Shown here: in pieces, positions 6,268 through 20,138 of the stretch | Position numbering within the stretch: position 1 is the first letter of the stretch | Layout: every line of letters begins with the position of its first letter | NCBI GenBank assembly: GCA_041659405.1 | Contig: JBAZYK010000005.1 | Coordinates: forward strand, 74,283 to 106,282 | Length of the DNA: 32,000 nt | DNA from: Candidatus Altimarinota bacterium | GTDB taxonomy: Bacteria; Patescibacteriota; Gracilibacteria; UBA1369 | Direction: 5' to 3' | Notes under the pieces: generated by a model | Database searches by the model: none | The model's input: only the letters and a program-made list of their open reading frames with translations | What the model was told of the DNA's origin: nothing | Position numbers and translations under genes: made by a program

Positions 6268-7107
6268 ATGCTTATGATTGATTGGCCAAAACTTGCCAAA
6301 AAAATTTGGAACACGTTATTGGACTACATTTTTCCAAAATTTTGCCTTGGCTGTAACAAAGAAGGTTCATATTTCTGCACTGAATGTTTTAAAGGCGTAA
6401 CGCTGCTAAAAGAACAGGTATGTCCCATTTGTTACCGTAAAAATGGACTAAATGGCCGTGTCTGTAAATCATGCGAAAATGCTGATTTTTTTCTGGACGG
6501 CCTATGGTGCGCGAGTTCTTTTGAAAAAAATTCGTTACTCCGGCACTGCATCCATAGTTTTAAATATGAATTTATTGAAGAATTGGCTTTGCCTTTAGCC
6601 AAAATTTTGAGTCAAAGTTTTAATGAAACGAATGCTGAAAAACCGGATTTTGGAAACTGTCTGGAAAGTTTTTTTGAGCCAGCAGGTTTGATTTGTCCGG
6701 CGCCTTTGCATCCAAAAAGACAGCGATTTAGAGGCTTCAATCAAACAGAATTATTGGCTGATGAGTTTATAAAATTAAATCGGGGTGTCTTGCAAAAACA
6801 ACAATTTTTGGAGCGCATTTATTATCACAAACCGCAAATGGAATTAAAACGGGAAGATCGAATTAAAAATGTGGAAAATGCTTTTCGGCTGAGCCCACAG
6901 ATGAGTTTGCAGTGGGGCGCTGGAATGAGTTTTAAATGCAGCACTACAGGTGACACGTCTGAATTTTTGCCGGCCGAAATCCCCCAAAATGTGATTCTGC
7001 TTGATGATGTGGCTACAACTTTATCGACTTTGAATGCCTGCGCCAAAGCGCTTAAGAAGGCCGGTGTAAAGCAAGTTTGGGGGCTTGTTTTGGCACGAGT
7101 TTTTTAG
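6268..7107 (+). CDS. comF: ComF-family protein (phosphoribosyltransferase-fold, ComFC-like)
   Basis: The N-terminus has Cys pairs CLGC...CTEC and CPIC...CKSC. Also present are PLHPKRQRFRGFNQTELLA, RIKNVENAFRL, and the PRPP-type loop VILLDDVATTLSTLNACAKALKKAG. There is an apparent roughly 30-aa insert before the PRPP loop. Confidence 0.85.
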   Translation: MLMIDWPKLAKKIWNTLLDYIFPKFCLGCNKEGSYFCTECFKGVTLLKEQVCPICYRKNGLNGRVCKSCENADFFLDGLWCASSFEKNSLLRHCIHSFKYEFIEELALPLAKILSQSFNETNAEKPDFGNCLESFFEPAGLICPAPLHPKRQRFRGFNQTELLADEFIKLNRGVLQKQQFLERIYYHKPQMELKREDRIKNVENAFRLSPQMSLQWGAGMSFKCSTTGDTSEFLPAEIPQNVILLDDVATTLSTLNACAKALKKAGVKQVWGLVLARVF

Positions 7108-7110
7108 GAT

Positions 7111-7138
7111 TTTCCCAATTTTTCGGTGGGGAGTATAA
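7111..7138 (+). promoter_or_regulatory. Sigma-70-like promoter candidate for the glycosyltransferase gene
   Basis: TTCCCA at 7111-7116, a 16-nt spacer, and a consensus TATAAT at 7133-7138. The predicted transcription start lies downstream of the GTG at 7126, which favours the ATG at 7165 as the start codon. Confidence 0.4.
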
Positions 7139-7164
7139 TACAATCGATTTCTAATGTGCAGTTT

Positions 7165-8277
7165 ATGATTCTTGGGATTGACGCATCGCGTTTTAGTCAT
7201 CCGGAAGCCACGGGCGTGGAATGGTACAGCTATCATTTGTTGAATGCTTTGTTCCCTTTGCTGGGCCGCGATCACAATGTGGAGGTTCGTCTGTATGCGC
7301 CGAAAGATTTTAAACCGCTGGAAGACCTGCCTTTTAACGTGCACAAGCGCATTATCCCCTTTCCACGATTTTGGACCGTGATTCGTCTTTCACTGGAAAT
7401 GATTTTAAGACCGGTGGATATTTTGTTTGTACCTTCGCACACTTTGCCTTTAATTGGAGCCAAAAAATCGATCATCATGATTCATGATGTGGCTTTCAAA
7501 CATTTAAAAAATTCTTATCATTGGTTTCAACATTGGCTGCTGGATCACACCACAAAAAAGGCTGTGAAAAAGGCTTATCGCATCCTGGTGCCGAGTGAAG
7601 CCACCAAAAAAGATCTGATTGAGTTTTATAAATGTAAGCCGGAAAAAATTGTGGTTATTCCGCATGGTGCTCCCGAAATTTCACCTTTGCAAATTTGGAA
7701 AACGACCGAAAAACAGGAATATTTTAAACAGTTTCATTTGGAGGATAACGATCTTTACGTTTTGTATGTGGGCAGACTTGAAAGTAAAAAAAACCTGGAG
7801 CGTTTGATTGAAGCTTTTAATCGATTCTTAAGGGAATTCCCGGATTGGAAACTGGTTTTGGCCGGCAAAAGAGGTGTTGGTTTTGAGCAAATCTGGAAAG
7901 TTGTTCAACAATTTCAACTCGAAAAAAATGTGGTTATGCCGGGGTATATCACAGAAAAAGAGAAGGCGTTTTTGTTTGACCACTGCCGAATTTTTGCTTT
8001 CCCTTCTTTATATGAAGGATTTGGTTTGCCGGTTTTGGAAGCTTTTGCGCATCGTCGACCGGTGCTGACGTCTAAAACATCGTCGCTGCCGGAAGTGGCC
8101 GGTGACGCGGCTTATCTTGTTAATCCGGAAAAGGTTGAAGAAATCAGTGTTGGCTTAAAACGGCTTGTTGCCGATGGAATTCTGGCGAGTCGCCTGATTC
8201 AAAAAGGTGACGTGCAACTGAAAAAATTCGACTGGGAAAAGTCCGCAAAAAAAACTGCGGAGGTTTTGCTTGGATAA
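7165..8277 (+). CDS. Glycosyltransferase family 4 (GT-B fold)
   Basis: MILGIDASRF is a typical GT4 N-terminus. The E-x7-E motif EGFGLPVLEAF is followed by RRPVLTSKTSSLPEVAGDAAYLVNP. The ORF-track start at 7126 is a GTG and is probably too far upstream. Confidence 0.9.
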   Translation: MILGIDASRFSHPEATGVEWYSYHLLNALFPLLGRDHNVEVRLYAPKDFKPLEDLPFNVHKRIIPFPRFWTVIRLSLEMILRPVDILFVPSHTLPLIGAKKSIIMIHDVAFKHLKNSYHWFQHWLLDHTTKKAVKKAYRILVPSEATKKDLIEFYKCKPEKIVVIPHGAPEISPLQIWKTTEKQEYFKQFHLEDNDLYVLYVGRLESKKNLERLIEAFNRFLREFPDWKLVLAGKRGVGFEQIWKVVQQFQLEKNVVMPGYITEKEKAFLFDHCRIFAFPSLYEGFGLPVLEAFAHRRPVLTSKTSSLPEVAGDAAYLVNPEKVEEISVGLKRLVADGILASRLIQKGDVQLKKFDWEKSAKKTAEVLLG

Positions 8278-9187: not shown

Positions 9188-11047
9188 ATGGACAATCAAA
9201 AAATCGCACAAATTTTTCAGGAGATTGGTGATATTCTTGATATTCAGGGCGAAAATCGATTCAGAGTTTTGGCTTACAATAAAGCTGCGCAGGAAATTGC
9301 CAACTGGCCAAGAGAAATGTCCGATGTTTTAAATGAAAATCCCAAAAAACTGGAAGAAATTCCGGGAATCGGCAAAGATCTGGCGCTAAAAATTGTGGAA
9401 ATGTTAAAAACCGGAAAGTGCCAATATCATGAAGATTTATTGAAAAAATTTGATAAAGGTCTGCTGCAGATTTTGCGTTTGCGGGGTGTCGGTCCCAAAA
9501 AAGTTAAACTTTTTTATTCGTCTCTCCAAATTAATAATATTGAAAAATTGCGCGCGGCGGCAACGGCGGGAATGCTGCGCGATCTTCCGGGAATGGGCGA
9601 AAAAAGCGAACAGGAAATTTTAAAAAGTCTGGAAGAATACGACAAGCACACGGACAGAATGTTGCTTTCTGATGCGATGCACCAGGTTGAGAAAATTATT
9701 GCCTATTTAAAAAAATGTCCGCTGGTGAAGCGAGTTGAGTATGCGGGAAGTTTGCGCAGACGGAAGGAAACAATTGGCGATCTGGATATTTTGGTGGCGA
9801 CAAAAAATCCCGCTAAAGATGCGGAAAAAATCATGGATTATTTTGTGAAATATCCGGAGATGGATAAAGTCATTGGCAAAGGCGAAACCAAGACTTCAAT
9901 TATTTTAAAATCAGGGGTGCAATCCGATTTGCGTGTGCTGGATGAGAAAATTTTTGGAGCGGCGTTGCATTATTTTACAGGATCAAAAGATCACAATATT
10001 GTAATTCGCGATAAGGCAAAAAAAATGGGGCTTAAAATCAGTGAATATGGCGTTTTTAGGTTAGAAAAAGCGCGCGGAGGAAAAGAGCCGCGTGAAATTT
10101 TGATTGGCGGAAAAACGGAAGAAGAAATTTTTAAAGCTGTTGGTCTTCCGTATATAGAGCCGGAAATGCGTGAAAATCGTGGAGAATTCCAGGCTGCGGA
10201 AAAAGGGAAACTCCCAAAATTAATTCGCTATGAAGATTTGCGCGGAGATCTGCACGTACACAGCAAATGGAGTGATGGGGCGTGTTCAATCGAGGAAATT
10301 GCGCGGGCTTATCGTGATGCCGGTTTTGAGTATATCGCGCTGACTGATCATTCCCCTGCCGTGACGGTTGCGCATGGACTGAGCGCGGATAGATTTGAAT
10401 TGCAGTGGGATGAAATTGATGCGATCAATAAAGATTTGGCTAAGGAGGCCGCGGAGTGGGCAAACAATGGAGGTAAAAAGAATACGCTACAGCAAAATAA
10501 CGATGGTAAAGCGTCGTCGGACAAGCCGCCGCTGCCGTTCACTATTTTAAAAGGCGTGGAATGTGACATTAAACCGGATGGAACGATGGATCTGCCGAAC
10601 AGCGTTTTGAAGCATTTTGATGTGGTGGTGGCCTCGATTCATTCGCGTTTTAATATGAGTCTAAAAGAGCAGACCGAACGCGTTTTAAAGGCTTTTAAAA
10701 ATCCTTATGTCACGATTTTTGGACATCCGAGTGGAAGATTAATAAATCAGCGCGAACCTTATGAAATCGATATGGAAGCGGTAATTAACGCGGCCGTGGA
10801 ACACGATATTTGTCTGGAAATTGACGGCCAGCCCGATCGCCTGGATCTGTTTGATTTTTACTGCAAAATGGCCAAAGAAAAAGGCGCAAAATTCACCGTG
10901 GATTCCGATTCGCACCATACCAATCAAATGACTTACTTAAATTTTGCCCTTGCTGTTGCCAAACGCGGCTGGCTGGAAAAAAGCGATGTGATGAACACAA
11001 TGGGCCTGAAAGATTTGAAAAAGTTTTTAATAAAGCGTAAGGGGTGA
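9188..11047 (+). CDS. polX: Family X DNA polymerase with C-terminal PHP domain (PolX)
   Basis: The N-terminus has an 8-kDa/HhH region (FQEIGDILDIQGENRFRVLAYNKAA, IPGIGKDLALKI, LRGVGPKKV). The pol-beta nucleotidyltransferase core is GSLRRRKETIGDLDILV. PHP motifs are DLHVHSKWSDG, LTDHS, ECDI and DSDSHH. The gene ends with TGA at 11045-11047. Confidence 0.92.
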   Translation: MDNQKIAQIFQEIGDILDIQGENRFRVLAYNKAAQEIANWPREMSDVLNENPKKLEEIPGIGKDLALKIVEMLKTGKCQYHEDLLKKFDKGLLQILRLRGVGPKKVKLFYSSLQINNIEKLRAAATAGMLRDLPGMGEKSEQEILKSLEEYDKHTDRMLLSDAMHQVEKIIAYLKKCPLVKRVEYAGSLRRRKETIGDLDILVATKNPAKDAEKIMDYFVKYPEMDKVIGKGETKTSIILKSGVQSDLRVLDEKIFGAALHYFTGSKDHNIVIRDKAKKMGLKISEYGVFRLEKARGGKEPREILIGGKTEEEIFKAVGLPYIEPEMRENRGEFQAAEKGKLPKLIRYEDLRGDLHVHSKWSDGACSIEEIARAYRDAGFEYIALTDHSPAVTVAHGLSADRFELQWDEIDAINKDLAKEAAEWANNGGKKNTLQQNNDGKASSDKPPLPFTILKGVECDIKPDGTMDLPNSVLKHFDVVVASIHSRFNMSLKEQTERVLKAFKNPYVTIFGHPSGRLINQREPYEIDMEAVINAAVEHDICLEIDGQPDRLDLFDFYCKMAKEKGAKFTVDSDSHHTNQMTYLNFALAVAKRGWLEKSDVMNTMGLKDLKKFLIKRKG

Positions 11048-11114: not shown

Positions 11115-11140
11115 GAGACAGTTTTTTAATTTTGAAAAAA

Positions 11141-12829
11141 ATGCGCCAAGAGATTCAAGAAAAACTCAAAAACATGCCTAATTTGCTTTCTATAGGCCAA
11201 GTTTCGGAGATTTTTGCAATCCATCCGGACACGCTTAGGAATTGGGAGAAAGAAGGCATTCTCGTGCCGTTGCGTTTCGGGCCACGCAAAGATCGCAAAT
11301 ACCGACCACAAGATATTGAAGCAATTGTGGATAAGGTCGGCAGCCAACTGACTCTTCCTCAACTCGAAAGATTTTTGTGGAAAAGTGCGGATATTCTTCG
11401 CGGAAAGATCGACAGTTCAGATTATAAAAAATATATTTTTGGGTTACTTTTTTACAAACGCATCAGTGATGTTTGGGATGAGGAACATGAAAAAGTAATG
11501 AGCGAGTTCAATGATGAAAATCTTGCTAAAGCCGATTACAATCACCGTTTTCAGGTTACGGAAGACTGTAAATGGTCGGTCATAACGCAGCAGGCTGAAA
11601 ATATTGGACCAAAACTTAATGAAATTTTTGATAAGCTTACAAATGCCAACAGCCCAAAGCTTGATAAGATTTTTGATGATCTGGATTTTGCCAATAAGGA
11701 CAAATTCCCGAATGAAACACTTCAAAAGCTGATCAACCATTTTTCGCAGTATAGCTTTGCCAGCAATTATATCAGTTCGGATTTGCTTGGTGATGCTTAT
11801 GAATATTTGATCAAACAATTTGCGGCCGATGCCGGCAAAAAAGGTGGTGAATTTTACACCCCGCGTGAAGTTGAACGCGTTATTATCGAGATCCTCAAGC
11901 CAAAAGAAAAAGATCATATTTATGACCCAACAGTTGGCTCCGGCGGTTTTTTGTTGGAGTCTTATCATTATCTTAAAGCAAAGGCTGGCGAAAAAATTGC
12001 TAATACACTTTATCTTTATGGGCAGGAAGCCAATCTTGGAACCTTTGCTATTTCCAAAATCAACATGTTCTTACACGGCCTTGATAGTGCCGATATTCGT
12101 CGAGGTGATACTTTAGCCAATCCTCAATTTTTAGATGACCTTGGGGCTTTGCAAAAGTTTGATATCGTAGTGGCAAACCCGCCGTATTCAATTAAAGAAT
12201 GGGCAACGGATTTTTTTAGAACTAATAAGTTTGGTCGGCTTCAGGGCTACGATATGCCACCTGAAAAGAATGCCGATTATGCATTTATTCTGCATATTTT
12301 GAAATCACTTAAATCAAATGGTCGTGCGGGCGTTGTGCTTCCTCATGGTGTACTTTTTCGTGGTGGCAGTGAAGGAAGAATCCGCGAACAGATCATCAAA
12401 AACGATTTACTGGAATGTGTTATTTCCATGCCTGCAAAACTTTTTTATGGTGTTGGAATTCCGGTTGCAATTTTAATTTTTAATCCCAGTAAACCGGACC
12501 ACAAAAAGAATAAGATTATGTTTATCGAAGCCGAAAAAGATTATCTGGAAGGCAAAAATCAGAATTCACTGCGCAAACAGGATATTGATAAAATCGTTGG
12601 TACTTATGATTCCTGGAAAGACGTTGAAAAAATCGCCCGAATTGTGGATCTGAAAGAAATTGAAGGAAATGAATTCAACCTCAACGTTCGCCGTTACATT
12701 GATACGAGCGTGGAAGAAGAAAAGATCGATGTGGCTGCCGTTTGGCAGGAATTGCAAACCCTTGAACAAGACCGCGAAAAAATTGACCAGCAGGTGGCGA
12801 GTTATCTTAAAGAACTTAAATATTTTTAA
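11141..12829 (+). CDS. hsdM: Type I restriction-modification methyltransferase subunit HsdM with an N-terminal MerR/excisionase-type HTH extension
   Basis: Methyltransferase motif I is YDPTVGSGGFLL and motif IV is VANPPYS. The HsdM N-terminal domain is LWKSADILRGKIDSSDYKKYIFGLLFYKRISD and the C-terminus is EFNLNVRRYID. The first roughly 65 aa (LSIGQVSEIFAIHPDTLRNWEKEGILVPLR...KYRPQDIEAI) match the MerR-type HTH pattern. The start is ambiguous: TTG at 11132, ATG at 11141, or ATG at 11174. Confidence 0.93.
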   Translation: MRQEIQEKLKNMPNLLSIGQVSEIFAIHPDTLRNWEKEGILVPLRFGPRKDRKYRPQDIEAIVDKVGSQLTLPQLERFLWKSADILRGKIDSSDYKKYIFGLLFYKRISDVWDEEHEKVMSEFNDENLAKADYNHRFQVTEDCKWSVITQQAENIGPKLNEIFDKLTNANSPKLDKIFDDLDFANKDKFPNETLQKLINHFSQYSFASNYISSDLLGDAYEYLIKQFAADAGKKGGEFYTPREVERVIIEILKPKEKDHIYDPTVGSGGFLLESYHYLKAKAGEKIANTLYLYGQEANLGTFAISKINMFLHGLDSADIRRGDTLANPQFLDDLGALQKFDIVVANPPYSIKEWATDFFRTNKFGRLQGYDMPPEKNADYAFILHILKSLKSNGRAGVVLPHGVLFRGGSEGRIREQIIKNDLLECVISMPAKLFYGVGIPVAILIFNPSKPDHKKNKIMFIEAEKDYLEGKNQNSLRKQDIDKIVGTYDSWKDVEKIARIVDLKEIEGNEFNLNVRRYIDTSVEEEKIDVAAVWQELQTLEQDREKIDQQVASYLKELKYF

Positions 12830-13456
12830 ATGGCTTATATATTTTTAGATGAAAGTGGAGATCTTGGATTTGGGAAAAAATCATCAAAGTTTTTTGTTAT
12901 AACATTTCTTTTTGTTGAAAATAAAAGAGTTATCGAGAAGGTTGTTTCAAAAACTCATGCAGAACTTAAAAAAATACATCGAACAAAAAGTGGGATACTG
13001 CATTGCTTCCACGAAAAACCGATTACTCGTCAAAGACTTTTAGCAAGAATAGCTCAAAAGAACTGTATGATTATGACTATTTACCTTGAAAAAGAGAAAG
13101 TTTATACAAAATTACCTGATGAAAAAATTGTTCTTTATAATTATGTAGCAAACATCCTCCTTGATCGTATTTTTAGCAAAAAGCTTCATGGTGATCATAA
13201 AGTCATTTTGATAGCTTCCAGAAAAGAAACTAACAAATTTTTAAATGAAAATTTCAAAAATTATCTTTCAAGTCAGATAAAAAATAATCATCAGATTGAT
13301 CTGCAAATAGAAATCAAGACGCCACATGATGAAAAAGCACTGCAAGCTGTCGATTTTATCAGCTGGTCAATTTATAGAAAATACGAATATAAAGATCACA
13401 ATTATTACGATCTTTTTAAAGAAAAAATCGTGGAAGAAAACCCACTGTATAAATAA
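12830..13456 (+). CDS. DUF3800-like protein
   Basis: The N-terminus YIFLDESGDLG and the C-terminal LQAVDFISWSIYRKY match my memory of the DUF3800 signature (DESG ... LQ-x-x-D). The ATG abuts the hsdM stop (TAAATG at 12827-12832), which suggests translational coupling. Confidence 0.7.
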   Translation: MAYIFLDESGDLGFGKKSSKFFVITFLFVENKRVIEKVVSKTHAELKKIHRTKSGILHCFHEKPITRQRLLARIAQKNCMIMTIYLEKEKVYTKLPDEKIVLYNYVANILLDRIFSKKLHGDHKVILIASRKETNKFLNENFKNYLSSQIKNNHQIDLQIEIKTPHDEKALQAVDFISWSIYRKYEYKDHNYYDLFKEKIVEENPLYK

Positions 13457-13592
13457 CAAAACCCCTTATGCTATTTACGAGCAACCATTCCGGAAGCCCA
13501 CATAAGAGGAATTACTTGTTCTGGTAATAGTATAGCGTGGACTATACCTTGCGGTCAATATCTATAACATTATGAAATTATATAAATAAATT

Positions 13593-13757
13593 ATGGATAC
13601 CAATTTAATGCTAATATCTCACAATAAAAAATTTGACGAAATAAAAGTTAAATCAGCCTTTACATTGGGTAGACAAGATGTTGTGGATCATCTTGCTGAT
13701 ATCAGCAAAGTGATCGTGGGGTGGGTACAATTTGTACCTATCCTTGACGCAAAATGA
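13593..13757 (+). CDS. Possible 54-codon small ORF in the intra-operon gap (doubtful)
   Basis: It runs from ATG at 13593 to TGA at 13755-13757 and encodes MDTNLMLISHNKKFDEIKVKSAFTLGRQDVVDHLADISKVIVGWVQFVPILDAK. It falls below the ORF-track length cut-off. No RBS or recognisable motif is present, so it may be noncoding or a gene remnant. Confidence 0.15.
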   Translation: MDTNLMLISHNKKFDEIKVKSAFTLGRQDVVDHLADISKVIVGWVQFVPILDAK

Positions 13758-13775
13758 GATGTAAATATGGGCTAG

Positions 13776-14228
13776 ATGGTATTATTTGAATCAATTATGG
13801 AATTTAAAAAATTTAAACCTATGAGTATCTACGATGCCGCCAAGGATGCCGCTAAAATCCTACAGGAAGCAGGAAAAATCAATGAATATCAAAAAATTCT
13901 TGATTTGATCGATGATTCATTAAACAAAAGGCATAAGATTGATGAGCTCGAAATGGAAAATCGTGAACTCAAAGAAAAGTTGAAGACCAAAGATGCTTAT
14001 AGCTTCAAAAATAACGCTTATTGGCATAAAGAAACTGGCGATGGCCCTTTTTGTTCAAGATGTTTTGATAAGCATAAGGATTTGATTAGGATTATTCCTG
14101 ATTCTAACAACAGCAGTTGGGCCAAATGCCCTGAATGTAAAAATAGCGTTAATTACACGGGAAAAGAGGTGAAGCCACGAAGTTACAATGTCTCTGGCGA
14201 ACATTTTGATCGATTTTCAGCTATTTAA
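13776..14228 (+). CDS. Hypothetical coiled-coil protein with C-terminal CxxC...CxxC zinc ribbon
   Basis: 150-codon ORF, with an alternative ATG at 13797. A heptad-like charged helix is present (KIDELEMENRELKEKLK), followed by CSRCFDKHKDLIRIIPDSNNSSWAKCPECK. It is the first gene after the 319-nt gap inside the R-M operon. Confidence 0.65.
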   Translation: MVLFESIMEFKKFKPMSIYDAAKDAAKILQEAGKINEYQKILDLIDDSLNKRHKIDELEMENRELKEKLKTKDAYSFKNNAYWHKETGDGPFCSRCFDKHKDLIRIIPDSNNSSWAKCPECKNSVNYTGKEVKPRSYNVSGEHFDRFSAI

Positions 14229-14236
14229 ATTTGTTT

Positions 14237-14911
14237 ATGACAAAAACACCCACACCAAGAAAAACAAGAGATGAATGGCTCAACTTCTGTCAAAGCTATC
14301 TATCATTGGCATTACTTGCCTGCGATGAAATGCTTGCGAAAAAGTATACAGTTAAATTGATGGATGTGGACATTCCAGCATACAGTGTTCCTTCTTTGTT
14401 TTTACCAACTATATATAACATCAAACATGGGCTGGAGGTCTTTCTTAAGACATTAAGAATTATCCTTAACGCCCAGTCTAACCCTAAAGAAGGCAAACAT
14501 AGTAATCTGGAAATTTTTACATTATTAAAAAAAGAAATTGATTCTAAACAAATTCAAAGAGTTATTGAATCAGAATGTAAAAAGAAACCGGATGATACAA
14601 ATCTTAAACTCTTACTGAAAGATCTCGCAAATCTAAGCACTTATGTTGATAAAATAGAAAGCTTAGTCATCAAATATGAACACTGTGAAATAATTAAAAA
14701 CAAAATCCAGACCGATTTTACGATTATTGATGAGGACAACACAGCTTTTCGCTATCCACAAAATAGCCTTCAAATAAAATTAGACTATCATAAAATTTTA
14801 ACAAAAATAACTCCTGAAGATATCCAGGAAATACGGACCGATGCCGAAGCACTTGTAATCAATCTTAACAGTTTAGGGTTCATATTGGATGTTTATAGTC
14901 AGTATAAATAA
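14237..14911 (+). CDS. Hypothetical all-helical protein, possibly HEPN-like
   Basis: The ATG at 14237 is preferred over the TTG at 14231. Three segments occur in the order expected for classical HEPN helices ending in an aRYP motif: IKHGLEVFLKTLRII, KHSNLEIFTLLKKEI and NTAFRYPQN. There is no canonical Rx4-6H. This is a weak call based on memory. Confidence 0.55.
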   Translation: MTKTPTPRKTRDEWLNFCQSYLSLALLACDEMLAKKYTVKLMDVDIPAYSVPSLFLPTIYNIKHGLEVFLKTLRIILNAQSNPKEGKHSNLEIFTLLKKEIDSKQIQRVIESECKKKPDDTNLKLLLKDLANLSTYVDKIESLVIKYEHCEIIKNKIQTDFTIIDEDNTAFRYPQNSLQIKLDYHKILTKITPEDIQEIRTDAEALVINLNSLGFILDVYSQYK

Positions 14912-14924
14912 TATCTTAAAAATC

Positions 14925-15335
14925 ATGCTTACACCGTTAAAAATCACACGAGATAAAGGCGTTGATCTGAAAAGGTTAAATAAGCTTAGAAGGCAAGGCT
15001 TAATTAAAATTTATGATGTAAAAATTGAAAATGAAACATCTAAGGTACCTGATAAGATCTTGCCTGTCGGAGTTTGGGGACATACAAAATGGGACGAGTG
15101 TATATGGGGGGATGAGAAGGATAATACCTTTGATAAGACTCTTGAAATTATTGGAAAAGAAAACATCAAGGATGCTATACATTTAGAAGCACATATCCGT
15201 AATAAATTTGACTATTTTGTTACGAATAATCCAAACGATTTTATTAAAAATGGAAAAAGAGAAAAACTAGAGTTGGAATTTCCTATTTTAAAGATTTTAA
15301 CAATAGAGGAATTGGAAAAAATATGTCAGAAATAA
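14925..15335 (+). CDS. Hypothetical protein with PIN-like C-terminal signature
   Basis: The ATG at 14925 is chosen because the ATG at 14889 would overlap the previous gene by 23 nt. DAIHLEAHIRNKFDYFVTNNPNDFI resembles the D-x-x-H/I-x-A...FvT-x-D-x-x-F end of PIN/VapC-type nucleases. The N-terminal acidic PIN residues are not evident. Confidence 0.55.
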   Translation: MLTPLKITRDKGVDLKRLNKLRRQGLIKIYDVKIENETSKVPDKILPVGVWGHTKWDECIWGDEKDNTFDKTLEIIGKENIKDAIHLEAHIRNKFDYFVTNNPNDFIKNGKREKLELEFPILKILTIEELEKICQK

Positions 15336-15348
15336 TTTTAAGAAACTT

Positions 15349-16500
15349 ATGAATACTTTGATTCAAAATAAAGATATGCAAAAAACTGTTAAATTTGATC
15401 AGCATATAGTTTTAAACTACGGCTCACCTTTGCCAGCAACAGATAGACTTAAAGGTAATTTCCCTGTTTATGGTTCAAATGGCGTTGTCGGTCATCATGA
15501 TCAATTTTTAATTCAAGGACCAGGGATTATTGTTGGGAGAAAGGGAACTATTGGCGCCGTTGTTTGGTCTGAGTCTAGCTTTTGGCCAATTGATACGACT
15601 TATTATATTACTGCTGATGAATCTGTTGATTTACGATGGCTTTATTACAAGTTACAAACTTTAGGATTACAAAAAATGAATATGGCTGGTGGAGTGCCTG
15701 GTTTAAATAGAAATGAAGTTTATAATTTGAAAATTTCTATTCCTTCAAGACAAGTTCAGCAGAAAATTGCAGAAATTTTGTCAAAAGTTGATGAAGAGAT
15801 CGAAAAGGTCGATCATGCCATAGAAAAAACGGAACAGCTCAAAAATGGCCTGATGCAGGATTTGCTGACGAAAGGCATAGGACACAGCAAATTCAAGAAA
15901 ACTGAGCTGGGGGAGATCCCGGAGGAATGGAAAGTTGTAAAATTAAGAGAAAAAACCGTAGGCATTCAATATGGCTTTACTGAGAGCTCTTCAAATCAAA
16001 ATATTGGACCAAAGTTTTTACGCATTACAGACATTGTTGATGGAAACGTTAATTGGGATTCGGTGCCTTATTGTGAGTGCCCAGAAGAACAAATTAATAA
16101 ATATTTATTAAAAAATGAAGATATTGTATTTGCAAGAACAGGCGCGACTACAGGCAAAAGTTTTTACGTCCAAAATCCACTATTTGCAGTTTTTGCGTCT
16201 TATCTTATTAGGGTTATCTTAGACCAAAAGACAGGTTTTGTTTCAAAATTTGTATATTATTTTTTCCAAAGCGACAAATATTGGAAACAAATTAAATCAT
16301 CCATATCTGGAAGCGCACAAGGAGGGTTTAATGCTTCAAAATTGGGTGATTTAAAACTGCCCTTTCCTCCACTTTCTGAACAGTTACAAATATCATCTAT
16401 TTTATCTTCTATCGATGATAGAATGGCTATAAGCAAAAAAGTTAAATCAAAACTTGGACAGCTTAAGGAAGGGTTAATGCAAAATCTTTTTAATAACTAA
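15349..16500 (+). CDS. hsdS: Type I restriction-modification specificity subunit HsdS (two target-recognition domains)
   Basis: TRD1 contains PVYGSNGVVGHHD. The central conserved helix is IPSRQVQQKIAEILSKVDEEIEKVDHAIEKTEQLKNGLMQDLLTKG. TRD2 contains FARTGATTGKSF. The distal conserved helix is LPFPPLSEQLQISSILSSIDDRMAISKKVKSKLGQLKEGLMQNLF. Confidence 0.92.
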   Translation: MNTLIQNKDMQKTVKFDQHIVLNYGSPLPATDRLKGNFPVYGSNGVVGHHDQFLIQGPGIIVGRKGTIGAVVWSESSFWPIDTTYYITADESVDLRWLYYKLQTLGLQKMNMAGGVPGLNRNEVYNLKISIPSRQVQQKIAEILSKVDEEIEKVDHAIEKTEQLKNGLMQDLLTKGIGHSKFKKTELGEIPEEWKVVKLREKTVGIQYGFTESSSNQNIGPKFLRITDIVDGNVNWDSVPYCECPEEQINKYLLKNEDIVFARTGATTGKSFYVQNPLFAVFASYLIRVILDQKTGFVSKFVYYFFQSDKYWKQIKSSISGSAQGGFNASKLGDLKLPFPPLSEQLQISSILSSIDDRMAISKKVKSKLGQLKEGLMQNLFNN

Positions 16501-16506
16501 TGTTAA

Positions 16507-17211
16507 ATGAATTTGATGACTAAAATTAAATTGCCTTATATAGCTGCCCTTTTCGCATTAATAAGCTTTTTATTTGCTTTGGGTATTTCATATAATAATA
16601 TTTTTCAAAATTCCAGTTGGTTTAACACACTCATAAATCCAATTTCTGCAGGAGATAAAAGCTCTATTACTCAAACCTCTTGGACTATTGCGGGATTTTT
16701 CCTTGCGGCTTTTGGATTAAGTGAATTGATAGAAAAGTTAAATCGAAAAATCGCTCCAGGATTCCTGATGGATAGATCTGAGAAAATACTTATAACGTTA
16801 AAATTGCCACCTGCCGTTTTTGATATCAGTTTTAGTGTTGTTAACCGGGGAAATAAATCGTTAAAGCCTGAGGATCATGTCTATTTCCAGTTGTTGATTC
16901 CTTCTGAAATATTTAAGGAGGTACTTTATATTAAATACAATGGTGAAGGTAATTTAATTGGACCACTAAAGAGAGAAAATTCCGTAAAAAATGGATATGT
17001 GACTATTGGTGGCATCATCAATGATGCCATTCACCCTAAAAGATGTATTGAGCAATTTAAGATTAAAATGTCTTTTTCTAAAATCGGGAAATATAAAATA
17101 TTATATTTTTTTAATACAGAGAATGGTTTTTATCCCAAAAAGTATAATGAAATAAATTTAACAGGTTTAGAGGAATTAGAAATAGATGTTGAAAATCAAC
17201 TTACTGATTAA
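16507..17211 (+). CDS. Hypothetical membrane protein (two predicted TM helices plus about 140-aa soluble domain)
   Basis: 234-codon ORF that starts 6 nt after hsdS and ends 8 nt before hsdR. The hydrophobic segments are LPYIAALFALISFLFALGISY and WTIAGFFLAAFGLSELI. I recognise no other motif. It is very AT-rich: 14 G+C in a hand-counted 60-nt sample at 16561-16620. Confidence 0.65.
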   Translation: MNLMTKIKLPYIAALFALISFLFALGISYNNIFQNSSWFNTLINPISAGDKSSITQTSWTIAGFFLAAFGLSELIEKLNRKIAPGFLMDRSEKILITLKLPPAVFDISFSVVNRGNKSLKPEDHVYFQLLIPSEIFKEVLYIKYNGEGNLIGPLKRENSVKNGYVTIGGIINDAIHPKRCIEQFKIKMSFSKIGKYKILYFFNTENGFYPKKYNEINLTGLEELEIDVENQLTD

Positions 17212-17219
17212 ATCTCCTT

Positions 17220-20138
17220 ATGCGCTTCAACGAACAATACACTGTCGAAAATTTTATTCTGGATTTCTTTCAGAAGCCTTTGGGTTATGAATATATTCCG
17301 CCGCAGAAGTTTGCCGCTTTTAGGCAGTTTGAAAATGAGTATGTTATTACTCCCCTTTTGCTTGATGCTGTTAAGAAAATCAATAAAATACATGATGATA
17401 CTGAAGCGCAAAATGTTGTCCGTGAGATTAAAAAGATTGATACAAATGAAGGTTTTTTGAATTTGATGCGGAATGGAATTAACCTGAAAGATCCCGCGCA
17501 GGCAGGTCGCATGCGCGATTATTTTGTGGTCGATTTTGAGAATCTAAAAAATAATCATTTTGTGGTTACAAATCAGTTTTATTTTGAGGGAAATGCGGAA
17601 AATATTCGTCCGGATATTTTGGTGTTTTTGAATGGCTTGCCGATTGCCGATATAGAGGCTAAAAGCCCTACTGCTGCCAATAATGTTAATTATGAAAAGG
17701 CCATTGATCAGCTGAAACGTTACGAGAAAAATGCCTGGAAACTTTTTTTGCCGAACTGTTTTAATGTTGCTACAGATGGCCTTAAAACTGTTTATGGTGC
17801 TACATATAGCCCTAAACAGCACTTTTTACAGTGGCGCGATGATGTATTAGCTCAGTTTTTTGGTGGTGAATTGGAAATGACTTTGGGGGCTCTATTCCAT
17901 AAAGAAAAACTGCTGGATATAATCAAGAATTTTATTCTGTTTGAAAAGGAAAAAGAGCGAACCACCAAAAAGATCTGTCGTTATCAACAATATCGGGCAA
18001 CCAACCTGATTGTGGATCGCGTAAAAGGCGCCGAAAAGAAGCGTGGGCTTATTTGGCACACCCAGGGCAGCGGCAAGAGCATTACGATGTTTTATACAGC
18101 CTGGAAGCTGCGTTTTGATCAACAACTAAAGAATCCAAAGATTTTTGTTTTGGTGGATCGCATTGATCTTGATGATCAGATTTATCAAACATTTACAAAC
18201 TGTGGAGGGGAAAACGTGGTGCGGGTGACTTCACGCAAGGATTTGGAAAGCAAAATTCGCTCACCGGAACGTGGTATTTTCATTTCAACAATTCAAAAAT
18301 TCAGCGAGCTTGAAGACGAAATTAAAAGTCTGGACCACAATACAATTGTCCTTTGCGATGAAGCCCATCGTGATAATGAAGGCGTTGCCGCAATTAACCT
18401 GCGTTCGGCGCTACAGAATGCTTTCTTTTTTGGGTTTACCGGAACTCCAATTGACAAAAAAACTCTCAATACTCATCGCAATTTTGGTGAAGAGGGCGAG
18501 CGTTATTTGGACTATTATTCCATTCAGCAAGCGATTGAAGATGGCACAACCCTGCCGGTAACTTTTGAAGCCCGTCTTTCCAAGTTTTTTATTGATGAAG
18601 AAAAAATTGATCAGCAGTTTGAAGAATTTGCCGCTGATTTAAGCGAAGAGCAAAAAACAAAACTTATTCAAAAATATGGCAAAAAAGCTTCATTGGTAAA
18701 GCTGGATAAGCGCATGGAAGCCATTGCGCAGGACATTGTTGAGCATTATAAGCTTTATGTGGAGCCAAATGGCTTTAAAGCGCAAATTGTTTGCGCAGAC
18801 CGTGAAGCCTGTGTGAAATATAAAAAACTTTTGGACAATTTGATTCCCGCAGATTGGTCGGCCATTATTTACTCTGCAGGCGATCCAAACAGTAGCAATG
18901 AAAGCGAAGAGGAGACAAAAAAATACAATACAACCAAGCCGGAAAGAGAAAGAATGATTGAAAATTTTAAAGATCGTGAAAATCCGTTACGATTTTTAAT
19001 TGTCTGCGACATGCTTTTGACTGGTTTTGATGCGCCAAATGAACAGGTAATGTATTTGGATAAGCCTTTGCGTGACCATAATTTGCTGCAGGCTATTGCG
19101 CGCACAAATCGGGTTTATCCTAATAAGGGTTGTGGGAAAATTATTGATTATTACGGAATCACCCGTAATTTGTATGCTGCGCTGGATTTTGATGAAAGCA
19201 TTGTCAGTTCAGCAATGTTGAATATTGATGAGTTTAAAAAGCGATTTACGGCTGTTTTAGACGAAGTTATGAAGCTATTTAATGGTTTCAACATTGAAGA
19301 TCCTTCTTTGGGGAATTTGCGCAGATGTTTGAAGGTTTTTGTTGATAATGCTGAACAGCAAAACTATTTCCGGACGTTATATACAGAATTAAAACAACTT
19401 TTTGAAATTTTATCTCCTGATCCTTTTTTGAAGGAGCATTTGCGTAAATTTGAATGGTTGACGAGTTTGTTTTTGGCTTTTACTAAAGAATTTGGAGAAC
19501 AAAATGGTGGCCATGAATTGGCGGAATATGGTGAGAAAATGAAGACTTTAATCCAGGAAAATGTTGATTATGAAGGCATTACCAAGAATTTCAGGGAAAT
19601 GCGCATTCATGACATGATGACTTTGCAAAAATTGGAAAAAATGGATGATGAGGAAAAATCTTTGTGCCTTGAAAAAATGTTAGCTCATGAAGTTAGAACA
19701 AATCTTGATTCAGCACCAATTTTTAAGACTTTCAGCGAGCGTCTGCGGACAATCAGGGAAGAATTTGAGAAAAATCAGATTGATTTAGCCGAACGAATCA
19801 AAAAATATTATGATTTGTTGAAGGATATTCAAAAAGCCGAAAAACGCGGGGAAGAGCTTGGCCTTGATCTGCGTGAATATGGTTTATTTGCGATTTCTGA
19901 GGAGTTTATTAAAATTGATCAATCCTTGCTTATCGCGTTTATAAAAGAAATGGCTAAGCGCTTATCTGAATTGTTAGACAAAAACTGGCAGGAATCTTCA
20001 AAAAAAGAAGAGTTTATTAAAGAAATTAAACGAATAATCCAGGAAATGGTTCTTAAAGAATATAAAGACCAGATTATTGTCCAGGATTTTCAAAAATATC
20101 TAAATCGTTTGATTGATGTGATCGTGAAAAAGTTCTAG
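17220..20138 (+). CDS. hsdR: Type I restriction enzyme R subunit HsdR (nuclease plus SF2 translocase)
   Basis: The PD-(D/E)xK-like nuclease motif is PDILVFLNGLPIADIEAKS. The helicase motifs are HTQGSGKSITM (I), LCDEAHR (II), FGFTGTP (III) and QAIARTNR (VI). A long helical C-terminal domain follows. Confidence 0.95.
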   Translation: MRFNEQYTVENFILDFFQKPLGYEYIPPQKFAAFRQFENEYVITPLLLDAVKKINKIHDDTEAQNVVREIKKIDTNEGFLNLMRNGINLKDPAQAGRMRDYFVVDFENLKNNHFVVTNQFYFEGNAENIRPDILVFLNGLPIADIEAKSPTAANNVNYEKAIDQLKRYEKNAWKLFLPNCFNVATDGLKTVYGATYSPKQHFLQWRDDVLAQFFGGELEMTLGALFHKEKLLDIIKNFILFEKEKERTTKKICRYQQYRATNLIVDRVKGAEKKRGLIWHTQGSGKSITMFYTAWKLRFDQQLKNPKIFVLVDRIDLDDQIYQTFTNCGGENVVRVTSRKDLESKIRSPERGIFISTIQKFSELEDEIKSLDHNTIVLCDEAHRDNEGVAAINLRSALQNAFFFGFTGTPIDKKTLNTHRNFGEEGERYLDYYSIQQAIEDGTTLPVTFEARLSKFFIDEEKIDQQFEEFAADLSEEQKTKLIQKYGKKASLVKLDKRMEAIAQDIVEHYKLYVEPNGFKAQIVCADREACVKYKKLLDNLIPADWSAIIYSAGDPNSSNESEEETKKYNTTKPERERMIENFKDRENPLRFLIVCDMLLTGFDAPNEQVMYLDKPLRDHNLLQAIARTNRVYPNKGCGKIIDYYGITRNLYAALDFDESIVSSAMLNIDEFKKRFTAVLDEVMKLFNGFNIEDPSLGNLRRCLKVFVDNAEQQNYFRTLYTELKQLFEILSPDPFLKEHLRKFEWLTSLFLAFTKEFGEQNGGHELAEYGEKMKTLIQENVDYEGITKNFREMRIHDMMTLQKLEKMDDEEKSLCLEKMLAHEVRTNLDSAPIFKTFSERLRTIREEFEKNQIDLAERIKKYYDLLKDIQKAEKRGEELGLDLREYGLFAISEEFIKIDQSLLIAFIKEMAKRLSELLDKNWQESSKKEEFIKEIKRIIQEMVLKEYKDQIIVQDFQKYLNRLIDVIVKKF

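Follow-up and report, generated by a model that had tools for sequence, protein, structure and literature searches.

Here we describe three short genes lodged between hsdM and hsdS in a type I restriction–modification (R-M) operon of a Candidatus Altimarinota bacterium (Patescibacteriota; Gracilibacteria). The operon lies in a 32,000-nucleotide stretch of contig JBAZYK010000005.1 (positions 74,283 to 106,282 of the forward strand, assembly GCA_041659405.1), hereafter the window, whose own numbering is used throughout. As judged from Pfam and from phmmer matches in related operons, hsdM, hsdS and hsdR are all intact and share one strand, and the hsdR product matches proteins with HSDR_N, ResIII and SWI2_SNF2 domains in three other loci (L003, L005 and L007; Table 1). 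Genes 1, 2 and 3 sit just 5' of hsdS and are separated from one another by 8 nt (ATTTGTTT) and 13 nt (TATCTTAAAAATC), with hsdS starting 13 nt past the end of gene 3; the open reading frames (ORFs) and spacers are exactly as an initial annotation, made from the sequence without database searches, had placed them on the plus strand. The three gene products are 100% identical to proteins in the record of a Candidatus Gracilibacteria metagenome-assembled genome. The interval between hsdM and hsdS holds, in addition, a DUF3800 gene and a 364-nt stretch. The three genes are real rather than chance ORFs, because none of them lacks homologs: the family of gene 1 counts 68 proteins, that of gene 2 182 clusters (at 50% identity) and that of gene 3 31 proteins. 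We favor, with a probability of roughly 0.6, the view that the hsdM–hsdS stretch is a cargo slot for independently assorting accessory genes and not a co-evolved three-gene system.

The evidence that carries this view comes from the genomic contexts of the three families. We fetched 31 loci, about 20 of which are distinct after near-duplicate contigs are merged, and used family profiles for genes 1, 2 and 3, along with the Hsd proteins of the window, to search their ORFs. No locus besides the window has even two of the three families. Homologs of gene 2, for which a scan of the collection with a narrow alignment returned three loci only, lie directly 5' of hsdS in L016, L017 and L018. Genes 1 and 3 are absent from these loci and also from L001, an 8.8-kb locus with two gene 2 paralogs and no R-M gene. 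Close homologs of gene 3 are found in type I R-M operons in seven of eight distinct contexts, the window included, and in five of these seven they stand directly 5' of hsdS, four overlapping it by 4–16 nt and the window copy keeping its 13-nt spacer. One close homolog alone, in a Nitrospiraceae genome (L013), was seen away from type I operons, and it has no upstream partner; two distant relatives (L014 and L015) are not in defense contexts. The gene 2 and gene 3 families share a preferred position just 5' of hsdS, and are often translationally coupled to it. The initial annotation had read the three genes as a single module in which a zinc-ribbon protein serves as sensor or antitoxin, and had chosen beforehand the co-occurrence of the three families elsewhere as its touchstone; among the fetched loci, the trio is together only in the window.

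The operon itself has close relatives with other cargo. The window operon and those of L016, L018 and L002 form a single R-M lineage, in which every HsdM carries an N-terminal MerR-type helix-turn-helix (HTH) domain and the HsdM proteins are 71–80% identical (window HsdM is 80% identical to those of L016 and L018 and 71% to that of L002). Between the window and L016 the HsdR proteins are 71% identical and the HsdS proteins only about 33%, and the cargo differs. The gap between hsdS and hsdR is a second variable slot, filled by unrelated, mostly hydrophobic or coiled-coil proteins and in one case by a Trypsin_2 protein.

Table 1. Features of the operon in the window and contexts of homologs in other loci (coordinates are those of the window unless a locus is named).
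Feature	Location	Strand	Evidence or arrangement
hsdM, type I methylase with N-terminal MerR-type HTH	11132-12829	+	Pfam N6_Mtase 1.6e-106, HsdM_N 8.7e-27, MerR_1 2.9e-9; 565 aa
DUF3800 gene	12830-13456	+	Pfam DUF3800 6.1e-15; GC 0.287; abuts hsdM stop
Gap, 364 nt	13457-13820		between DUF3800 gene and gene 1 (start 13821)
54-aa ORF, doubtful reality	13593-13757	+	inside the 364-nt gap
Gene 1, coiled-coil zinc ribbon	13776 or (probably) 13821 to 14228	+	150 or 135 aa
Gene 2, HEPN-T-like (PF05168-type) helical	14237-14911	+	224 aa
Gene 3, alpha/beta with conserved acidic cluster	14925-15335	+	136 aa; PIN/Mut7-C-like by motif only
hsdS, specificity subunit	15349-16500	+	Pfam Methylase_S 9.9e-39, two matched stretches; two target-recognition domains; 383 aa
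234-aa ORF, hydrophobic N-terminus (second variable slot)	16507-17211	+	between hsdS and hsdR
hsdR, restriction subunit	17220-20138	+	972 aa, intact ORF
Second variable slot in other loci	L016 4921-6264; L029 3167-3994; L030 3633-4352; L031 2196-2993		between hsdS and hsdR
Gene 2 homolog	L016		hsdM-RhuM-gene 2-hsdS-x-hsdR
Gene 2 homolog	L017		x-gene 2-hsdS, gene 2 overlapping hsdS
Gene 2 homolog	L018		hsdM-BroN-gene 2
Gene 2 paralogs, two	L001 3404-7626		HTH_17, Fic, short paralog, 190-aa zinc-ribbon protein, full-length homolog, SLFN/AlbA_2 protein
Gene 3 homolog	L002		upstream 169-aa protein, hydrophobic N-terminus; gene 3 overlaps hsdS
Gene 3 homolog	L003		upstream transmembrane TPR protein, 472 aa; gene 3 overlaps hsdS
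Gene 3 homolog	L005/L006		upstream AbiTii protein, 303 aa; 267-aa gene between gene 3 and hsdS
Gene 3 homolog	L007/L008		upstream DUF5677 protein, 253 aa; operon end, after hsdR
Gene 3 homolog	L029/L030		upstream 111-aa protein, hydrophobic N-terminus; gene 3 overlaps hsdS by 4 nt
Gene 3 homolog	L031		upstream 188-aa protein, hydrophobic C-terminus; gene 3 overlaps hsdS by 4 nt
Gene 3 homolog, 47% identity	L013 1916-6327 (Nitrospiraceae metagenome-assembled genome)		beside HincII-type type II R-M pair; NERD-domain protein 1 nt after
Gene 1 homolog	L009		after type IIG R-M enzyme, before HNH gene
Gene 1 homolog	L011		near SMODS gene
Gene 1 homolog	L019-L021		after MvaI/BcnI R-M pair and membrane protein
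Gene 1 homolog	L022		between DUF4145/HEPN gene and NERD gene
Gene 1 homolog	L024		after ribonucleotide reductase
Gene 1 relative, 37% identical	L027 4917-8826 (phage contig)		overlaps small terminase start; then large terminase, SPP1-type portal

Gene 2 itself has no match in scans of Pfam, NCBIfam, PHROGs and PADLOC, and a sequence-profile search of the PDB returned nothing. Its family, which an exhaustive HMMER search placed at the 182 clusters given above, nevertheless leads to the HEPN domain. Weak matches to Pfam HEPN (PF05168) occur in 22 of 67 family members (best 3.8e-5), and the 165-aa paralog in L001 reaches 25.5 bits against a gathering score of 22 over the helix that bears the H/E/K motif. 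Because this paralog passes the HEPN threshold and also matches gene 2 (profile match 1.6e-35, BLASTP 4e-19), gene 2 can be placed in the HEPN family by transitive homology. The AlphaFold2 (AF2) model of gene 2 (pLDDT 94.5) has as its top Foldseek match in the PDB the HEPN domain of sacsin, 3o10 (probability 0.99, E 0.076, TM 0.56 on the target). The bundle of the model takes in an insertion of additional helices, some 70 residues long (residues ~90–157). The sequence matches, with the model as a possible further pointer, support the assignment of gene 2 as a classical-type HEPN (HEPN-T, PF05168-like), as the initial annotation had suggested from the helix order and an AFRYP motif that is indeed present (R172-Y-P174). 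Across the 67 aligned members H64, E67, K71, H88, D165, N168 and P174 are invariant, N61, K63 and Y173 are nearly so, and R172 is sometimes lysine; the acidic motif Ex3[KR] is thus present in all 67 sequences as E67-x3-K71. The conserved Ex3K, the basic residue of RYP and the extra invariant histidines fit published HEPN-T variants: the AF0298-type HEPN-T and AbiV variants likewise have Ex3K, a basic residue at the motif position and alternative conserved histidines, and in HEPN-T variants that lack the motif histidine another conserved histidine has been proposed to complete the site (PMC3710099). We also considered gene 3 as a minimal nucleotidyltransferase (MNT) partner of this HEPN and rejected it from the sequence, which has no GS...DxD motif. 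The gene order in MNT–HEPN pairs is the opposite of that of genes 2 and 3.

The family of gene 3 is small, with 31 homologs, and rare: profile scans picked up 3 loci in 185,579 species genomes and nothing in viral contigs. Scans of Pfam, NCBIfam, PHROGs and PADLOC returned nothing for it. Conserved in all or nearly all members are [IV]TxD (D10), E35, D83, H90, D96-Y-F-V-T100, D/N102, D105-F and R112. Among 30 sequences D10 (by motif search), D83 and T100 are found in all, D105 in 29 and E35 in 28, and position 102 is aspartate in 22 and asparagine in 8. In the AF2 model (pLDDT 89.2) the protein is an alpha/beta domain whose first two strands are separated by one helix, and it has a 35-residue insert. 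The acidic residues are predicted where strands end and helices start: behind strands 1 and 2, within the helix preceding strand 4, and behind strand 4. We take this order to be that of PIN proteins, in line with the published description of PIN-like proteins (PMC5499597). The initial annotation had described gene 3 as PIN-like, from a string that it placed at the end of the protein. The string is there (DAIHLEAHIRNKFDYFVTNNPNDFI) and is part of a conserved acidic pattern (D10, E35, D83, D96, T100 and D105), but 29 residues follow it, and no PIN domain came from Pfam, PDB-sequence or Foldseek searches. Searches of PDB sequences, by profile and by single sequence, hit only a periplasmic-binding protein for gene 3, a match that we regard as spurious, and nothing for an archaeal relative. 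Two copies in JGI are named 'predicted nucleic acid-binding protein', a name presumably taken from COG families, some of which have PIN domains.

Small size, an aspartate after strand 1, a glutamate after strand 2, an aspartate in the helix before strand 4 and the T-x-D/N-x-x-D-F signature are features that gene 3 has in common with the PIN-like toxins coupled to type I R-M systems and the Mut7-C/COG4634 'reduced PIN' group, and the single helix between the first two strands recalls Mut7-C-like domains (PMC5499597). Unlike these, gene 3 has its 35-residue insert, which follows strand 2 and precedes the helix after it, and the extra invariant D96, and no profile or fold search links it to PIN, Mut7-C or Toprim families. 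A distant PIN relationship stays conceivable despite the negative fold search, because fold searches that start from PIN do not recover the Mut7-C group either (PMC11347159). From its sequence, then, a PIN-like nature is plausible, and the most defensible statement is that gene 3 has a conserved, probably metal-binding, acidic site.

Gene 1 behaves differently from the other two. Its 68 homologs, of about 130 aa, are mostly from unnamed organisms, and the named ones are Peregrinibacteria, Gracilibacteria, Patescibacteria-group and Minisyncoccia. All 68 have an MSIYDAAKD-like N-terminus, at which the public annotation also begins (135 aa), so the start is most likely M16 at 13821, 45 nt past the 13776 of the initial annotation, whose ORF is otherwise as described. 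From N- to C-terminus the protein has a helix, a heptad coiled coil and a ribbon of the form GPFCSRC-x21-CPEC. Coiled coil and zinc ribbon are thus both present as first proposed, although the spacing is CxxC-x21-CxxC and not x22, and the GPxCxRC...C core is invariant in the family alignment. Gene 1 matches phrog_1244, of unknown function, at 4.6e-9, and its other matches in Pfam and the PDB are only generic zinc-ribbon or coiled-coil models. Homologs stand beside R-M, SMODS, HEPN and ribonucleotide reductase genes, and a relative on a phage contig precedes the terminase genes, a slot that in phages often holds HNH or other packaging-associated small genes. Since these neighbors share no family and none is related to gene 2 or gene 3, gene 1 is not their dedicated partner; it is a solitary mobile small gene of islands and phages, with no specific tie to either.

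If the interval is a cargo slot, the variable center of the operon (the cargo, hsdS and the gene after hsdS) would be exchanged between conserved hsdM and hsdR flanks, with the cargo traveling together with hsdS, and the window operon would have accumulated several independently assorting cargo genes. Genes 2 and 3, as putative nucleases co-expressed with the R-M enzyme, could then act as second-line, abortive-infection effectors in the manner of PrrC, released when restriction fails, and gene 2 may serve here as the variable upstream partner that members of the gene 3 family nearly always have. The most likely role, by analogy with PrrC/EcoprrI, is a latent nuclease backup that would fire upon the defeat of restriction, and for it we infer nuclease activity, latency, regulation by the R-M complex and a defense phenotype.

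Both putative nucleases have precedents. Links to R-M operons have been described for at least 16 HEPN clades, HEPN-T PF05168 among them, and RhuM or Doc genes are frequent neighbors there (PMC3710099). The window resembles this PrrC/EcoprrI paradigm in that a HEPN-type gene is embedded between type I R-M subunit genes; RhuM-like or Fic/Doc neighbors, as described for R-M-linked HEPN genes (PMC3710099), occur also in the related loci L016 and L001. Gene 2 differs from PrrC and RloC, which have an ABC-ATPase domain where gene 2 has none, and from R-M-linked HEPN proteins more generally in its missing Rx4-6H motif, its extra helices, its lack of a direct Pfam match and its lack of an MNT partner. 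PIN-like toxins, for their part, are transcriptionally coupled to type I R-M systems in arrangements that are not conserved between related species and often lack the antitoxin (PMC5499597). Gene 3 likewise lies inside hsdM–hsdS–hsdR operons whose arrangement varies between relatives. In contrast to PIN-like toxin systems, it has no recognizable antitoxin (VapB or DUF433), and its upstream partners are large and highly varied. The window genes therefore extend published links of HEPN and PIN to R-M operons, and the general principle is not new.

Several observations weigh against a slot filled with independent nuclease cargo. Few contexts could be compared (five of gene 2 and eight of gene 3, from fragmentary metagenome contigs), and a rare conserved pairing of genes 2 and 3 could have escaped notice. 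The tight spacing of 8 and 13 nt would also suit a functional coupling of genes 1–3 in this particular genome. The canonical Rx4-6H motif is absent from the 67-member alignment of gene 2, where R172 is followed by Y-P-x-N with no conserved histidine four to six residues on, and a protein without it could be a non-catalytic nucleotide- or RNA-binding HEPN. For gene 3, none of 30 family members matches a PIN-clan Pfam model at E ≤ 1, Foldseek against the PDB and BFVD returned only generic Rossmann-like folds (E ≥ 0.03; leading hits at E of about 0.05 and TM 0.3–0.45), and Pfam, PDB-sequence and Foldseek searches yielded no Mut7-C or Toprim relative; its nuclease nature is a motif-level lead. These points also feed the alternative that the genes are non-toxic R-M auxiliaries or regulators (acting in restriction alleviation control, assembly or nucleotide sensing by a non-catalytic HEPN) or selfish hitchhikers with no defense role. 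Motif-less HEPN domains have been proposed as non-catalytic substrate- or RNA-binding modules, for example in nucleotidyltransferase fusions and human sacsin (PMC3710099), gene 3 is not confirmed as a nuclease fold, and PADLOC models match none of genes 1–3. We nonetheless consider this alternative unlikely, given that the invariant polar and acidic residues of the gene 2 and gene 3 families look like active sites and that the neighbors in other loci (RhuM, Bro-N, Fic, AbiTii, NERD and an OLD-like ATPase) are typical of defense islands.

An integrated abortive-infection module, in which the zinc-ribbon gene 1 senses infection or neutralizes two RNase effectors, HEPN and PIN, would account for the tight packing on one strand with no terminator between the genes, for the HEPN type of gene 2 and for the PIN-like acidic pattern of gene 3. 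The gene 2 homolog of L001 is likewise preceded by a zinc-ribbon protein, albeit an unrelated one: we tried this 190-aa protein as a relative of gene 1 and rejected it (best local E 0.066, not significant). The lack of co-occurrence among the fetched loci largely refutes such a module, which we regard as very improbable. Gene 2 homologs occur without genes 1 and 3 even in the closely related operons L016 and L018, and gene 1 homologs stand alone in varied contexts and beside phage terminase genes. A smaller unit fares better. Genes 2 and 3 could form a pair in which gene 3 is a conserved hub (an effector or adaptor) that works with a hypervariable upstream sensor, toxin or membrane effector, with gene 1 as unrelated cargo. 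A same-strand gene lies immediately upstream of gene 3 in seven of the eight distinct contexts, the window included, overlapping or abutting it by 4–20 nt in six other loci, and the partners come from at least six unrelated families; in the window itself an alternative ATG of gene 3 at 14889 would create a 23-nt overlap with gene 2. Yet gene 2 homologs persist without gene 3 in L016–L018 and L001, the gene 3 homolog of L013 has no upstream partner and is followed by the NERD protein, and in compact operons genes often overlap the one before them, which need not imply partnership. We regard this pairing as a minority possibility, to be held tentatively, and continue to prefer the cargo slot. 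The AbiTii and DUF5677 partners were also tried as disguised relatives of gene 2 and rejected (hhalign probability <1%).

More speculative, and rather doubtful on present evidence, is the broader proposal that the gene 3 family as a whole is an undescribed, type I R-M-dedicated small acidic-site nuclease (reduced PIN or Toprim-like) or adaptor, often coupled to hsdS, that serves as a fixed hub for hypervariable upstream sensors or effectors (HEPN-T, AbiTii, DUF5677, membrane or TPR proteins). In having a conserved small component with many unrelated partners, a two-gene arrangement and a home in defense islands, it would resemble the Panacea/NetFlax type II toxin–antitoxin networks (PMC10440598). 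In gene 3, unlike those networks, the partnership is only putative, the partners include membrane and TPR proteins that are atypical as toxins or antitoxins, and the module is tied to one type of host operon, type I R-M. If true, this would be a modular second-line defense wired directly to the restriction complex. The underlying observation goes beyond the literature that we consulted: the family is almost confined to type I R-M operons, and the gene upstream of it is nearly always present but differs from case to case, without common ancestry. Its members could therefore be fixed hubs whose partners vary. The value of the present findings is incremental unless this idea proves true, because HEPN and PIN-like genes in R-M operons have already been published.

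More generally, the comparison points to type I R-M operons of poorly studied candidate-phyla bacteria as platforms for exchangeable accessory genes, in which related operons keep hsdM and hsdR but exchange hsdS along with the putative nuclease cargo, which differs among them. Two families without annotation are defined as well, and Pfam, NCBIfam and PADLOC have no model of their own for either: a HEPN-T variant that lacks Rx4-6H, and a rare alpha/beta family with an acidic site that is nearly restricted to type I R-M operons. Each is a candidate for PrrC-like backup defense.

The remainder of the operon adds several minor observations. G+C content is lowest over the cargo genes (0.29–0.37), compared with 0.40 for the window, and hsdS (0.345) too lies under hsdM and hsdR (0.38–0.40). 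No terminator-like site above chance expectation lies between the genes of the operon, and the cassette has no Rfam family, tRNA, meaningful repeat or enriched promoter or terminator signal. The 364-nt gap, which has no Rfam match, could hold an internal promoter for genes 1–3 and hsdS or be an insertion scar; the 54-aa ORF within it has no family match and no homolog in any fetched locus. The 234-aa ORF after hsdS has no significant family in library scans, and its N-terminus is probably a membrane segment.

Some Gracilibacteria read TGA as glycine. We rejected this code (code 25) for the window and applied the standard code 11, because the long ORFs have no in-frame TGA and PolX terminates in TGA; reading that codon as glycine would fuse PolX to HsdM. 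PolX (9188–11047) is the only long gene with a TGA stop and shares its frame with hsdM, so that the fusion under code 25 would be an ORF of 1221 codons. TGA stops are otherwise nearly absent from the window, with all remaining long ORFs ending in TAA or TAG.

The MerR-type HTH of HsdM (residues 18–67, 11132–11340) is a fusion kept also in L002, L016 and L018, a hint that the methylase subunit may be autoregulatory or tether itself to DNA. In L029 an OLD-like ATPase/Toprim gene (7070–7876; AAA_15, AAA_21, OLD-like_TOPRIM) directly follows hsdR, a further case of defense-gene stacking. RNA motifs associated with DUF3800 have been published, and none is found in the window at Rfam gathering thresholds. 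The DUF3800 gene itself has a 49%-identical copy, together with a second copy, between hsdS and hsdR in L005/L006 (L005 4919–5752 and 6002–6628), so that DUF3800 seems to be one more family that recurs as cargo in type I R-M operons.

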